Positions 1,110-2,876 of a stretch of 2,876 nt of DNA are shown here, one piece after another. Position 1 is the first letter of the stretch. Every line of letters starts with the position of its first letter. The stretch lies in NCBI RefSeq assembly GCF_003334315.1, contig NZ_QOWR01000107.1; one strand, given 5' to 3'. The stretch is from Escherichia coli (GTDB taxonomy: Bacteria > Pseudomonadota > Gammaproteobacteria > Enterobacterales > Enterobacteriaceae). Made by a program: the position numbers and the translations under genes. The notes under the pieces are model-generated. The model was given only the letters and a program-made list of their open reading frames with translations, ran no database searches and had not been told where the DNA came from.

Positions 1110-1800
1110 CTTGTAAAGCCTTTATCGTTTTTTTATGCTCTGGATTAATATAATCACTACATCTATCTGAGCAATCTGTTGTTGATGGACATGTCAACCC
1201 ATGGTCATTTACAGCCAAGTCTTTTTTATTATCTTCAATCATTTCAGAATGGGATAGCTTTACTTTTCTGCCGTACATACCGAACAGATTTAACCCGTAA
1301 TCTCTAATCTCTTTTTCATAACCCAGCCCTTTCGCCGATCGGCTAACACCAGCGTCATTTAATTTAGACACTCGACAAAATGCCATACAATGGAAAAATT
1401 GATTAGTCCCACCTAAATTTAATCTCTTCATATCTTCATAAGTATCAGATAATATATCCCATGCTCTTTGATGGTTTAGTTGATCTTTTCTTCTTATTAG
1501 CGCTACATCTGCGGGACTTAACCCTAATGGATCAATACCATTCACCGGATTCAGCGGATACGCATACAGACTCCATCCCCCCTCCAGCCCTATCGGGTCC
1601 TGAGTGATATACCGCCCCTGCAACGGATCGTAGTACCGGTTCCGGTTGTAGTACAGCCCCGACTCCTTATCATACTGCTGCCCCGGCAGCCGGTACGGCT
1701 GGTGCAGGTGATGCGGGTTCTCTTCATTCAGCTGGTTGCCCCACTCATCATACTCCCCGCTCCACGCAATGTTTCCATCCGCATCCATCAGCGCCAGCAT
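1090..1800 (-). CDS. ylbH: Orphan Rhs C-terminal module (236 aa): 94 codons of Rhs core homology then a distinct ~142-aa toxin domain; possibly a silent or pseudogene-like stored toxin tip
   Basis: Seen in sequence: translation begins [94 protein letters not shown], i.e. Rhs core tail with DPLGL at 1519..1533. This segment is about 80% identical (by-eye protein comparison, 11 differences in 54 aa) to the core tail of the upstream Rhs gene. The ATG at 1798..1800 overlaps the immunity TAA (1800..1802) and has no obvious SD. The 711-nt size and 1-nt overlap match my recollection of K-12 ylbH (unverified). Confidence 0.8.
1093..1518 (-). other. Orphan toxin domain (~142 aa), unrelated to the main toxin domain; activity unknown
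   Basis: Seen in sequence: AT-rich segment after DPLGL encoding [142 protein letters not shown]. It has five Cys, including HCxxxC and CxxxDCxxxC spacings. No similarity to the main toxin domain is visible. Confidence 0.65.
1519..1800 (-). repeat. Rhs core 3'-end homology block, orphan copy (direct repeat partner of 2715..2876 and of sequence beyond the window)
   Basis: Seen in sequence: 1519..1680 aligns without gaps to 2715..2876 at a constant offset of 1196 nt, with high nucleotide identity (e.g. gggtcctgagtRatataccgcccctgcaacggatcgtagtaccggt shared). 1681..1800 presumably matches core sequence to the right of the window. Confidence 0.85.
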
Positions 1801-2168
1801 TATTTACTATGTAGGAAATTCAAAACACATCCATTTTTCTTATTAATTTCTATAATAAATACACCACCCGCAACTTCATAAGGTAACTTTGCTCCCTCAA
1901 CAACCCAACTATCTGGTAGTTCCGTAATTAAATATGGTTTTTCTTCTTCTGCAATCCGTTCGCCATAGCGATACCTAACATATATTTCAGCTAATTGTAT
2001 CGCCATTGTTTCAGTTTTTACCGTATTTTTAACAGAGTATTTATCTAAATGTAATTTTTCCACATACCTCATAAAAATAATGTTTTCATCAGAACCGTAA
2101 ACAGCTGTCTCATTACAGGCAAATAGTATAAAAAATGAAAGCATCGAAAATATTGAACTATATTTCAT
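1800..2168 (-). CDS. ybbC: Rhs immunity protein (RhsI-type), 122 aa, with N-terminal signal/lipoprotein-like peptide; predicted periplasmic or outer-membrane lipoprotein
   Basis: Seen in sequence: ATG at 2166..2168 is preceded by AAGGAG (plus 2174..2179) with a 5-nt spacer. The N-terminus [18 protein letters not shown] is hydrophobic, with Cys18 in a lipobox-like context followed by Asn at +2. The gene sits 39 nt after the toxin stop on the same strand, the canonical immunity position. Its 369-nt length and 39-nt gap match my recollection of K-12 ybbC downstream of rhsD (not verified by search). Confidence 0.85.
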
Positions 2169-2173
2169 TGAAT

Positions 2174-2179
2174 CTCCTT
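2174..2179 (-). promoter_or_regulatory. Shine-Dalgarno (AAGGAG) for the immunity gene
   Basis: Minus-strand AAGGAG, 5 nt upstream of the ATG at 2166..2168. Confidence 0.7.
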
Positions 2180-2207
2180 ATAGGCCCCACTAATAAAAGC
2201 ACTAAAA

Positions 2208-2876
2208 TTAATCATGATACGGTATGCATACTGAACTCAATCCCGGGACACTATTTCTGATAAAAATATATTCTCCTTTATTATTAAGCGCCTCAAATCG
2301 TCCATCAGGTGTTGCGAGATAAAATGCTTCAAGATTATTATCTTTACTTCTTACAAGATTTTTATCGCTACTTGAAAAAAATTCATCAACATAATCGCCA
2401 TGACTATCTGCACCGTGAGTATGATAAGCAGCAACTCTATCTATACCTGTGGGACATTTTCTTTTCAGAGGATATGACTCCTTTCTTAAATTATCAGTTT
2501 CTGCCTTAGATGCAAAATATTTTCCATTAGTATCTTTACAGACAATACCAGAGTATTCCATATCATTACATAGAGATCTATTCTGCGTTTCTTTCAAAGC
2601 ATCTAACGCAGCATCTGCAGTACTATCAAATTTACTTGGTCCTATTATACGTGAAAGAACACCACAAACTCCCCCCGTACATGCTCCAGATCTGGCATCA
2701 TCCCAAGTCTGCAATAATCCCATAGGGTCAATTTGTTGTAGTGGATTTAAAGGATACTGATATAAATTCCATCCCCCTTTCAACCCCATCGGGTCCTGAG
2801 TAATATACCGCCCCTGCAACGGATCGTAGTACCGGTGACGGTTATAGTACAGCCCTGATTCCTCATCATGCTGCTG
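2208..2876 (-). CDS. rhsD: Rhs-family polymorphic toxin, C-terminal portion only (5' end beyond the right window edge): end of conserved Rhs core plus variable C-terminal toxin domain
   Basis: Seen in sequence: the minus-strand frame is open from the window edge (2876) to a TAA at 2208..2210. The ORF-track start at 2819 is a TTG inside the conserved region, not the true start. Translating 2876 down to 2715 gives [54 protein letters not shown], the hallmark end of the Rhs core (YD-repeat tail with the PxxxxDPxGL motif; DPMGL at 2715..2729). The sequence after it is AT-rich and unrelated to the core. Symbol rests on recalled K-12 locus architecture, not a search; the Rhs call itself is firmer than the symbol. 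Confidence 0.9.
2211..2714 (-). other. Variable C-terminal toxin domain (Rhs-CT, ~168 aa) of the main Rhs protein; activity unknown
   Basis: Seen in sequence: starts immediately after DPMGL and has much lower GC than the core. It contains six Cys and an E...YHTH...FSSSD pattern. I tentatively recall a similar pattern from a Pfam domain of unknown function found at Rhs/YD-repeat C-termini (DUF4329); that is unverified. Established knowledge: Rhs proteins carry their toxin as the segment after the PxxxxDPxGL motif. Confidence 0.75.
2715..2876 (-). repeat. Rhs core 3'-end homology block, main-gene copy (truncated by window edge)
   Basis: Partner of 1519..1680; same evidence. Confidence 0.85.

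Follow-up and report, generated by a model that had tools for sequence, protein, structure and literature searches.

Rhs elements and their dissociated tips

Rhs elements join a G+C-rich core to an A+T-rich core extension, as established by work of the Hill laboratory summarised in PMC2935791, where the GC mosaic was already used to delimit dissociated tips. Such orphan tips are the subject of the C-terminal displacement model (Jackson et al., 2009, PMC2935791; Koskiniemi et al., 2014, PMC3967940), with arrays in which a core stub, carrying an alternative tip and its immunity gene, lies downstream of a full gene. The aspartyl autoprotease plug of Rhs/TcC proteins bears a pair of DPxGL motifs spaced by about 17 residues, and what follows the second motif is the functional toxin domain (Jurenas et al., 2021, PMC8636562). 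Among tabulated toxin and immunity pairs, Tox-JAB-2, equivalent to DUF4329, goes with Imm-NTF2-2, an immunity domain reported as 'E. coli only' (Zhang et al., 2012, PMC3482391).

The window analysed here, a stretch of 2876 nt of Escherichia coli DNA, has the locus and gene order of the K-12 rhsD element (rhsD-ybbC-ylbH-ybbD-ylbI; RhsD-E subfamily, Hill and co-workers). It is 99.9% identical to the rhsD element of deposited E. coli genomes over its 2876 nt, differing from K-12 by minor SNPs and by the length of a homopolymer at 753-758. Synteny and annotation (rhsD, ybbC, RHS core fragment, YbbD family; ybbP ... mnmH/selU) match the known locus, so that the window can be identified, from its sequence, as the distal part (3' end) of the rhsD Rhs element, a predicted polymorphic-toxin locus. 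All genes are on the minus strand: the rhsD 3' end, ybbC, an orphan ylbH, a truncated ybbD, ylbI and the end of an IS3 (Table 1). The rhsD gene extends past the window edge; it is 4281 nt long when complete, in a comparison locus.

We read this distal region, with a probability of about 0.9, as an Rhs element shaped by C-terminal displacement, where GC-rich core pieces alternate with AT-rich cassettes and where an ancestral arrangement persists in an O55:H7 strain. To be sure, both the GC-rich core/AT-rich tip pattern and the displacement model were known before (Hill laboratory; Jackson et al., 2009), and the case has little significance beyond annotation.

Table 1. Features of the window discussed in the text; all positions are those of the window.
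Feature	Position	Strand	Description
rhsD core, GC-rich 3' part	2769..2876	-	GC 0.546, GC3 0.667; annotated rhsD
RhsD first DPMGL	2781..2795	-	upstream half of the paired DPxGL autoprotease signature; from translation
rhsD last 18 core codons	2715..2768	-	conserved core protein, AT-rich synonymous codons; GC 0.296
RhsD final DPMGL codons	2715-2729	-	
RhsD C-terminal tip and stop codon	2208..2714	-	predicted Tox-JAB-2/DUF4329 toxin domain; GC ~0.363-0.365, GC3 0.179
ybbC	1800..2168	-	predicted immunity gene, NTF2-fold; GC ~0.306-0.309, GC3 0.213; annotated ybbC
Distal junction of inserted cassette	1798..1800	-	TAATG: ybbC stop (1800-1802) overlaps ylbH ATG
ylbH orphan core tail	1543..1800	-	GC-rich, probable remnant of a displaced rhs 3' end; GC 0.589, GC3 0.767
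ylbH first DPIGL	1585-1599	-	within the orphan core tail
ylbH last 8 core codons (NGIDPLGL)	1519..1542	-	AT-rich; GC 0.333, GC3 0.125
ylbH DPLGL codons	1519-1533	-	
ylbH orphan C-terminal tip and stop codon	1090..1518	-	toxin candidate; GC ~0.364-0.366, GC3 0.275
86-aa ORF, truncated 5' half of ybbD	849..1109	-	GC ~0.280-0.283; overlaps ylbH by 20 nt
ylbI, rhs 5'-end remnant	157..253	-	ISGKPAARQGDMPQYGGPIVQGSAGV...; third GC-rich island, GC 0.639

A compositional mosaic beyond chance

Steps in composition were located as maximum-likelihood change points and submitted to permutation tests (5000 permutations). The GC mosaic is real, and it goes far past chance. Its GC-rich stretches are rhs core DNA, namely the end of the rhsD core, the core stub of ylbH and the 5' remnant ylbI, while the AT-rich ones are toxin-tip/immunity cassettes and decayed spacer. 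Tips and immunity genes have a GC of 0.28-0.37 and a GC3 of 0.18-0.28; the core pieces within the window reach a GC of 0.55-0.59 and the complete rhsD core 0.64, with a GC3 of 0.77, the flanking host genes standing at 0.54 (0.538). The initial annotation had seen by eye that both tips and both immunity candidates are AT-rich, and computation agrees (0.280-0.366). It had also taken both core tails as GC-rich, which holds for 1519-1800 (0.567) but fails for 2715-2876: at 0.463 this segment is below the flanking host genes, being a composite of a GC-rich and an AT-rich part (Table 1).

Could such a pattern be a chance fluctuation in heterogeneous sequence? Tested inside the 2876-nt window alone, the rhsD step only attains p≈0.01. 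However, the steps at 1542 and 1798 were equalled in none of the 5000 permutations, the rhsD step has a dLL of 30.2 when extended context is used, and the pattern is repeated in 8/8 K-12 junctions. Chance, with a probability next to nil, is ruled out by the permutation tests. A second explanation would have protein composition, not history, make the contrast, since YD-repeat cores are rich in G/R/D/P and toxins in K/N/I. The GC expected from amino acids is indeed slightly lower in tips and immunity genes (0.38-0.50) than in cores (0.51-0.57), and the start of the RhsD tip, rich in Gly/Ala/Cys, has a local GC of 0.52. Yet third-position GC is roughly four-fold apart, at 0.18-0.28 in tips (about 0.52 expected from the amino acids and host codon usage) and 0.67-0.77 in cores (about 0.55 expected), with an expected GC3 of ~0.51-0.56 across all segments; moreover, the same conserved peptide (GGW...YPLNP...DPxGL) is written with GC-rich codons in ylbH and with AT-rich codons in rhsD. 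Amino-acid composition is ruled out as the cause by this departure of observed from expected GC3, and we hold it to be extremely improbable.

Even the conserved rhs core has a composition foreign to E. coli, with a GC3 of 0.77 against ~0.56 expected. At rhsD, the G+C-rich core and the A+T-rich core extension are both atypical for the host, and the codon-adaptation comparison proposed along with the initial annotation shows atypical codon usage, with a CAI-like index of 0.46-0.54 against 0.65-0.72 in the flanking genes.

Where the core meets the tip

In both genes the RHS core ends at PxxxxDPxGL: in ylbH, the matches to TIGR03696 (residues 17-94) and to NF041261 (RHS_core, positions 1169-1261) both stop at the L of DPLGL, and RhsD has the same tail. 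Paired DPxGL motifs 17 residues apart directly precede the variable tip, as DPMGL-17-DPMGL in RhsD and DPIGL-17-DPLGL in ylbH, so that both genes appear to share the plug signature of the autoprotease system (PMC8636562). The positions given in the initial annotation for the final motifs are correct (Table 1); the sharp compositional switch that it put within a few bases of them is another matter.

In ylbH, GC falls as a ramp over about 60-90 nt. The best change point is 1542/1543 (2-lnL range 1492-1576; 0/5000 permutations; 1518 worse by 2.9 lnL), at P|xxxxDPLGL, which means that the DPLGL codons are already AT-rich. As this is 9 nt upstream of the D codon, the proposed switch holds loosely. 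Third positions place the change at -8 codons (2-lnL range -20..-7). At 1519 itself there is essentially no step within ±30-60 nt (0.47/0.43 and 0.42/0.47). In rhsD the proposal fails: the step falls at 2768/2769, with one DPMGL motif on either side, 18 codons upstream of the core end and 39 nt upstream of the D codon of the final DPMGL. With extended context the 2-lnL set is 2764-2808, and 2714 is worse by 8.6 lnL; within ±60 nt of 2715 the contrast is even inverted (tip side 0.52, core side 0.33). GC3 concurs, with a change point at -18 codons (2-lnL range -23..-14; position 0 worse by 7.1 lnL). Only 3/18 of the last core codons of rhsD end in G or C (0.167, vs 0.61 expected), with a binomial P of 1e-7 relative to core GC3 and of 7e-6 relative to the local 90 codons. 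The compositional joint of rhsD is therefore inside the autoprotease region, 18 codons before the core end. The computed profile has steps at 1542, 1798 and 2768; the change-point intervals, drawn from 18-90 codons, are approximate.

Taken strictly, the earlier proposal would make the GC steps exact graft points at the DPxGL codons, so that GC would bound the imported DNA as well as the functional toxin domain. The short distance between 1542 and the D codon in ylbH, an all-site range that includes 1519-1533 in this gene, and the end of TIGR03696 are all compatible with it. The position of the rhsD step and its local inversion contradict it, as does the demonstrable junction of the latest event, which is 1798/1799, with a proximal counterpart within the GC-rich core. 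We consider this strict version very unlikely. Joints 8 (ylbH) or 18 (rhsD) codons before the motif end imply that the DPxGL codons themselves are tip-like and AT-rich, and the core-to-tip transitions are older joints, located at or upstream of the P in PxxxxDPxGL. Change points of GC3 at the eight K-12 junctions go from -22 to +4 codons. When other rhs genes are compared with rhsD, homology ends at -53 to -1 nt (one at +35) from the motif end, with no single shared junction. The block identity of ylbH to rhsD is 0.78-1.00 before -18 codons, and past the motif it is 0.22-0.33.

Hence GC does not, contrary to what had been supposed, delimit the functional toxin domain: this domain begins after the second DPxGL (PMC8636562), while the rhsD step comes 18 codons before the core end. 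GC steps, 8-18 codons upstream of the cleavage motif and locally even inverted, are unsuitable for setting a toxin boundary at codon level. Compared with the autoprotease system as described (PMC8636562), the segment between the motifs of rhsD differs in being compositionally tip-like. Its last 18 core codons, the catalytic second DPMGL of the autoprotease among them, are all AT-rich like the tip. It is conceivable, though we would put it only as a tentative idea, that more is exchanged than the toxin following DPxGL: a toxin may bring along half of the cleavage site and plug, so that toxin and cleavage site co-evolve as one module, and the joints at -8 and -18 codons would then reflect different donor lineages. 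The RhsD tip is found once per genome, always in rhsD and at ≥99% identity, with no other core bearing it for comparison.

Probable displacement at the rhsD locus

The sharpest GC step of the window, and the only sharp one, is the ybbC/ylbH junction at 1798/1799, where GC goes from 0.58 to 0.18 within ±60 nt (2-lnL range 1793-1802). It corresponds to the junction of an inserted cassette rather than to a DPxGL motif. A full-length counterpart is found in E. coli O55:H7 USDA5905, which has, at the same ybbP-mnmH locus, a 1398-aa rhs gene ending directly in the ylbH tip and followed by the 86-aa gene, without the rhsD tip and without ybbC. Window positions 1798..123 are 98.8% identical to the 3' end of this rhs locus, and homology begins exactly at 1798. 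The presence of the cassette is polymorphic within the species: absent from O55:H7, the Tox-JAB-2 tip with ybbC is carried by 1896 of 5426 complete E. coli genomes (35%), at ≥99% identity in 1887 of them. Rhs cores, unlike this cassette, are mosaic at 79-100% identity. Sliding comparison of the S171-1, K-12 and O55:H7 core genes gave a patchwork (79-100% per 100 nt) with no locatable proximal crossover, and because the core is a mosaic none is called. With the latest graft joints at 1798/1799 and somewhere in the mosaic GC-rich core, the imported unit includes GC-rich core DNA.

Horizontally acquired cassettes grafted onto a conserved core had been proposed at the outset. Domain pairing, distribution over genomes and O55:H7 all support the tip/immunity modules as accessory cassettes joined to a conserved rhs core; the latest graft joints, though, are elsewhere than at DPxGL, and the core is foreign too. 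The likeness to the displacement arrays described previously (PMC2935791, PMC3967940) is close: a full gene comes first, then a core stub that bears a different tip and an immunity gene; stub and main core fall in one clade, the ylbH stub being of RhsD-E type; the stub stands out as a GC peak; and a different strain, here O55:H7, has the orphan tip on a full-length gene. A difference is that no circular intermediate or donor was seen at rhsD. A plasmid collection searched for both cassettes returned no genuine episomal copy, which, for one collection, is weak evidence; the matches were chromosome-sized or misassigned (mislabelled chromosomal) records and one 330-nt fragment of ybbC.

Events probably proceeded as follows. 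The ancestral locus would have been O55:H7-like, with a full-length rhs ending in a ylbH-type tip and followed by the 86-aa gene. An incoming unit, in which a core stub preceded the Tox-JAB-2 tip and ybbC, would have undergone homologous recombination in the core and placed its new tip on the gene. The displaced 3' end, with its tip, its immunity gene and the 267 nt of core that precede the DPLGL codons, would have ended up downstream as an orphan lacking a promoter; the abrupt 1798/1799 step is where the inserted unit ends distally. In the present protein, the Rhs aspartyl autoprotease would cut after the second DPxGL and release the toxin, and immunity of the producer cell would come from YbbC.

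Structure, rather than a phylogeny, suggests the direction of the event, and the opposite course would yield the same O55 structure: in an older two-module array, the rhsD core would have recombined with the ylbH stub, deleting the Tox-JAB-2 tip and ybbC and making O55:H7 derived. The 267-nt core repeat, ~88% identical to the rhsD core, is a plausible substrate, the core is a recombination mosaic, and exactly such recombination is documented in Salmonella (PMC3967940). Against this, the near identity of the cassette among its carriers, next to cores diverging by up to 20% per 100 nt, fits recent spread, and an abrupt novel joint at 1798/1799 is needed under either direction. We favour insertion into an O55-like ancestor and find deletion between two core repeats rather improbable; were O55:H7 nevertheless derived, the composition mosaic would still reflect older grafting, while being silent on a recent insertion.

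Toxin, immunity and neighbouring features

The products of the inserted cassette correspond to the pair tabulated by Zhang et al. (PMC3482391): the RhsD tip matches PF14220 (DUF4329; E = 2.2e-37), with the H-T-H ... S..D residues, and YbbC matches PF15631 (Imm-NTF2-2; E = 6.8e-26). The ylbH tip belongs to no recognised toxin family, having in Pfam a weak SAA match only (E = 0.0015), and PDB sequence searches with both tips and YbbC gave no match at E ≤ 1. The 86-aa ORF is the candidate immunity gene for this tip. It matches NCBIfam NF011297 (86 aa; 193.9 bits, above cutoff) and positions 1-85 of the 163 of NF011298, being a YbbD family protein of 163 aa truncated to one half, with no match to a Pfam or an immunity family; ybbD is an annotated pseudogene in K-12. 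Rfam searches found no RNA family anywhere in the window.

At the far end, ylbI corresponds to positions 1-33 of the NCBIfam RHS_core model (E = 5e-12) and is 79% identical to the rhs start of another comparison locus, with a GC change point at 249 (range 236-279). Beside it the window has an IS3 (positions 1-122), from which MG1655 is free.

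Locus and gene layout

Deposited E. coli chromosomes match the window at 99.9% over the full 2876 nt and are annotated there with rhsD, ybbC, an "RHS repeat-associated core domain" pseudogene (ylbH in K-12), a YbbD-family ORF and IS3. Every rhs-related gene is encoded on the minus strand. The stop codon of ybbC and the start codon of ylbH overlap, TAATG (1798-1802) being common to both, and the ylbH ATG arises at the insertion junction, its A and T supplied by the side of the cassette (the RhsD tip with ybbC). The 86-aa ORF starts 20 nt ahead of the ylbH stop, with an overlap at 1090-1109.

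Features of the window and GC content of its segments
Feature	Position	Strand	GC	Remark
rhsD 3' end	2208..2876	(-)		gene continues beyond window
rhsD core within the window	2715-2876		0.463	
RhsD tip			0.363	
ybbC	1800..2168	(-)	0.306	
ylbH	1090..1800	(-)		
ylbH core stub	1519-1800		0.567	
ylbH tip			0.364	
86-aa ORF	849..1109	(-)	0.280	
ylbI	157..253	(-)		rhs 5' remnant
IS3 terminus	1..122			

Composition of cores, tips and immunity genes

The pattern reported by eye in the initial annotation, a GC-rich core with AT-rich tips (the predicted C-terminal toxin parts after DPxGL) and immunity genes, is real, both in segment GC (Table) and in GC3 compared with expectation. The complete rhsD core, also profiled in 150-nt windows, has a GC of 0.64 and a GC3 of 0.77. 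With flanking host genes at 0.538 (n=11), the core thus exceeds the host average, while the cassettes (0.280-0.364) are well under it. From the protein sequence of each segment and the synonymous codon usage of the host, a GC3 of 0.51-0.63 would be expected throughout; the observed GC3 is lower for tips and immunity genes (0.18-0.28) and higher for core pieces (0.67-0.77). Because of this departure, amino-acid composition is rejected as the cause of the GC contrast. A CAI-like index, with the flanking genes as reference, gives 0.46-0.54 for the cassettes vs 0.65-0.72 for host genes.

That E. coli rhs genes combine a G+C-rich core with an A+T-rich core extension is already published, as are GC-poor downstream regions with dissociated core and tip fragments; "an associated peak in GC content" has served to bound the dissociated tips (PMC2935791). 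That Rhs-CT domains differ in GC and codon bias is a background statement elsewhere (PMC8636562). As a consequence, the GC mosaic is a known feature, rightly recognised, with break positions that were over-precise.

Position of the GC steps

The motifs themselves had been correctly located (DPLGL at 1519-1533, final DPMGL at 2715-2729). In each gene another DPxGL precedes this motif by 17 residues (1585-1599 in ylbH, 2781-2795 in rhsD); such a pair is the signature of the Rhs aspartyl autoprotease, which cleaves after the second motif (PMC8636562).

Steps were placed by maximum-likelihood two-segment change-point analysis with 5000 permutations. At the ylbH core/tip transition the best change point is 1542 (2-lnL range 1492-1576; reached by 0/5000 permutations), and the 1518 proposed at first fits 2.9 lnL worse. 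GC of the flanks is 0.47/0.43 at ±30 nt and 0.42/0.47 at ±60 nt: this is a ramp rather than a step. GC3 changes 8 codons before the end of DPLGL (range -20..-7), directly past the P of PxxxxDPLGL, so that the DPLGL codons (GAT CCA TTA GGG TTA) are of AT type already.

For rhsD the best change point, 2768, is weak on the window sequence alone (p≈0.01). Extended to equal 507-nt arms with sequence from an identical genome record, the test gave a dLL of 30.2 (2-lnL set 2764-2808), with 2714 fitting 8.6 lnL worse; the GC3 change point is at -18 codons (range -23..-14), position 0 being 7.1 lnL worse. The last 18 core codons (GC 0.296; GC3 3/18; binomial P 1e-7 vs core), catalytic motif included, belong compositionally to the tip, which is the sole mildly new nuance here. 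Around 2715 (±60 nt) the contrast runs the other way, 0.52 on the Gly/Ala/Cys-rich tip side vs 0.33 on the core side. The only truly sharp GC break in the window is the ybbC/ylbH junction, at 1798 (range 1793-1802), where GC falls from 0.58 to 0.18 between the two 60-nt flanks. Absence of a step at 1519 and 2715 had been named as refuting the claim; this holds for 2715 and half holds for 1519. Of the sharp breaks claimed exactly at the DPxGL codons, the mosaic therefore stands and the exact placement does not, and GC is not supported as a delimiter of the functional toxin domain.

Among the eight K-12 junctions analysed, all with wide intervals, GC3 change points fall at -22 codons (rhsE), -20 (ybfO), -18 (rhsA, rhsD), -8 (rhsC, yibJ, ylbH) and +4 (rhsB). 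The compositional joint is thus usually within the last 8-22 core codons, not past DPxGL. When rhsD is compared with other E. coli rhs genes, homology end points are likewise scattered, lying between -53 and -1 nt apart from a single one at +35.

Origin of the array

E. coli O55:H7 USDA5905 carries a 1398-aa full-length rhs that is likewise flanked by ybbP and ylbG/mnmH. Window 1798..123 is 98.8% identical to its rhs 3' end, 86-aa gene, spacer and ylbI; the Tox-JAB-2 tip and ybbC are absent from that locus. Since this homology starts exactly at the sharp GC step (1798), ylbH is probably the resident gene's former 3' end. The K-12-type locus differs from that of O55:H7 by a unit of core stub, new tip and ybbC, an arrangement that the C-terminal displacement model predicts (PMC2935791). 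A 267-nt stretch of core homology ahead of the DPLGL codons is duplicated, and substrates of this kind have been shown to serve in the reactivation of orphans in Salmonella (PMC3967940).

The cassette is found in 1896 of 5426 complete genomes, one copy each, with at least 99% identity in 1887. The rhsD cores adjoining it upstream of the window (compared locus records L001, L002 and L014) are recombination mosaics, with 79-100% identity per 100 nt. It follows that the proximal crossover cannot be placed, and that within this locus type the 'variable' tip is better conserved than the core. Acquisition of the variable modules as cassettes, as first suggested, is supported; insertion is more likely than deletion, and their formal separation needs a phylogeny.

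Downstream, ylbI preserves 32 codons of an rhs 5' end (ISGKPAARQGDMPQYGGPIVQGSAGV...), the ATG start being lost; an rhs N-terminus is thus placed downstream of the entire array. With a GC of 0.64 and a change point at 249, ylbI is the third GC-rich island, unconnected with DPxGL. Position 122 is the last of the IS3 terminal inverted repeat (...TGGGTAGGATCA), and homology to the IS3-free O55:H7 locus reaches as far as 123. MG1655 (K-12) has no IS3 here, so in the window's strain type an IS3 has inserted between ylbG and ylbI.

Toxin and immunity modules

The RhsD tip matches Pfam DUF4329 (E = 2e-37), that is Tox-JAB-2, whose tabulated immunity partner is Imm-NTF2-2 (PMC3482391); YbbC is Imm-NTF2-2 (E = 7e-26). 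Toxin and immunity functions of the modules are predicted. The ylbH tip gave no recognised family, a weak SAA match only and no PDB match. The 86-aa ORF corresponds to the N-terminal half of a 163-aa YbbD family protein (NF011298), and K-12 annotation treats the 491-nt stretch at 619-1109 (-) wholly as pseudogene ybbD. As this immunity candidate holds only the first 86 of 163 YbbD codons, recombination that reactivated the orphan ylbH toxin might leave it without a full-length immunity protein. In the decayed ybbD 3' half, a run of six T at 753-758 is seven long in L001, an otherwise 99.9% identical record, and the difference decides which small ORF is open (620..751 vs 620..793).

Over its first ~20 codons, at 2655-2714 (-), the RhsD tip has a local GC of 0.52. 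At the protein level this start is common to the RhsB tip (AKSGACTNGLCGTLS), and yhhH, the RhsB immunity gene, belongs like ybbC to PF15631; the rhsD and rhsB cassettes of K-12 are thus diverged homologues. Finally, an 86-kb E. coli plasmid (NZ_AP027905.1, 76651-76980) carries 330 nt 100% identical to ybbC, with the toxin tip absent; annotated 'NTF2 fold immunity protein', this copy may be a stand-alone immunity gene.
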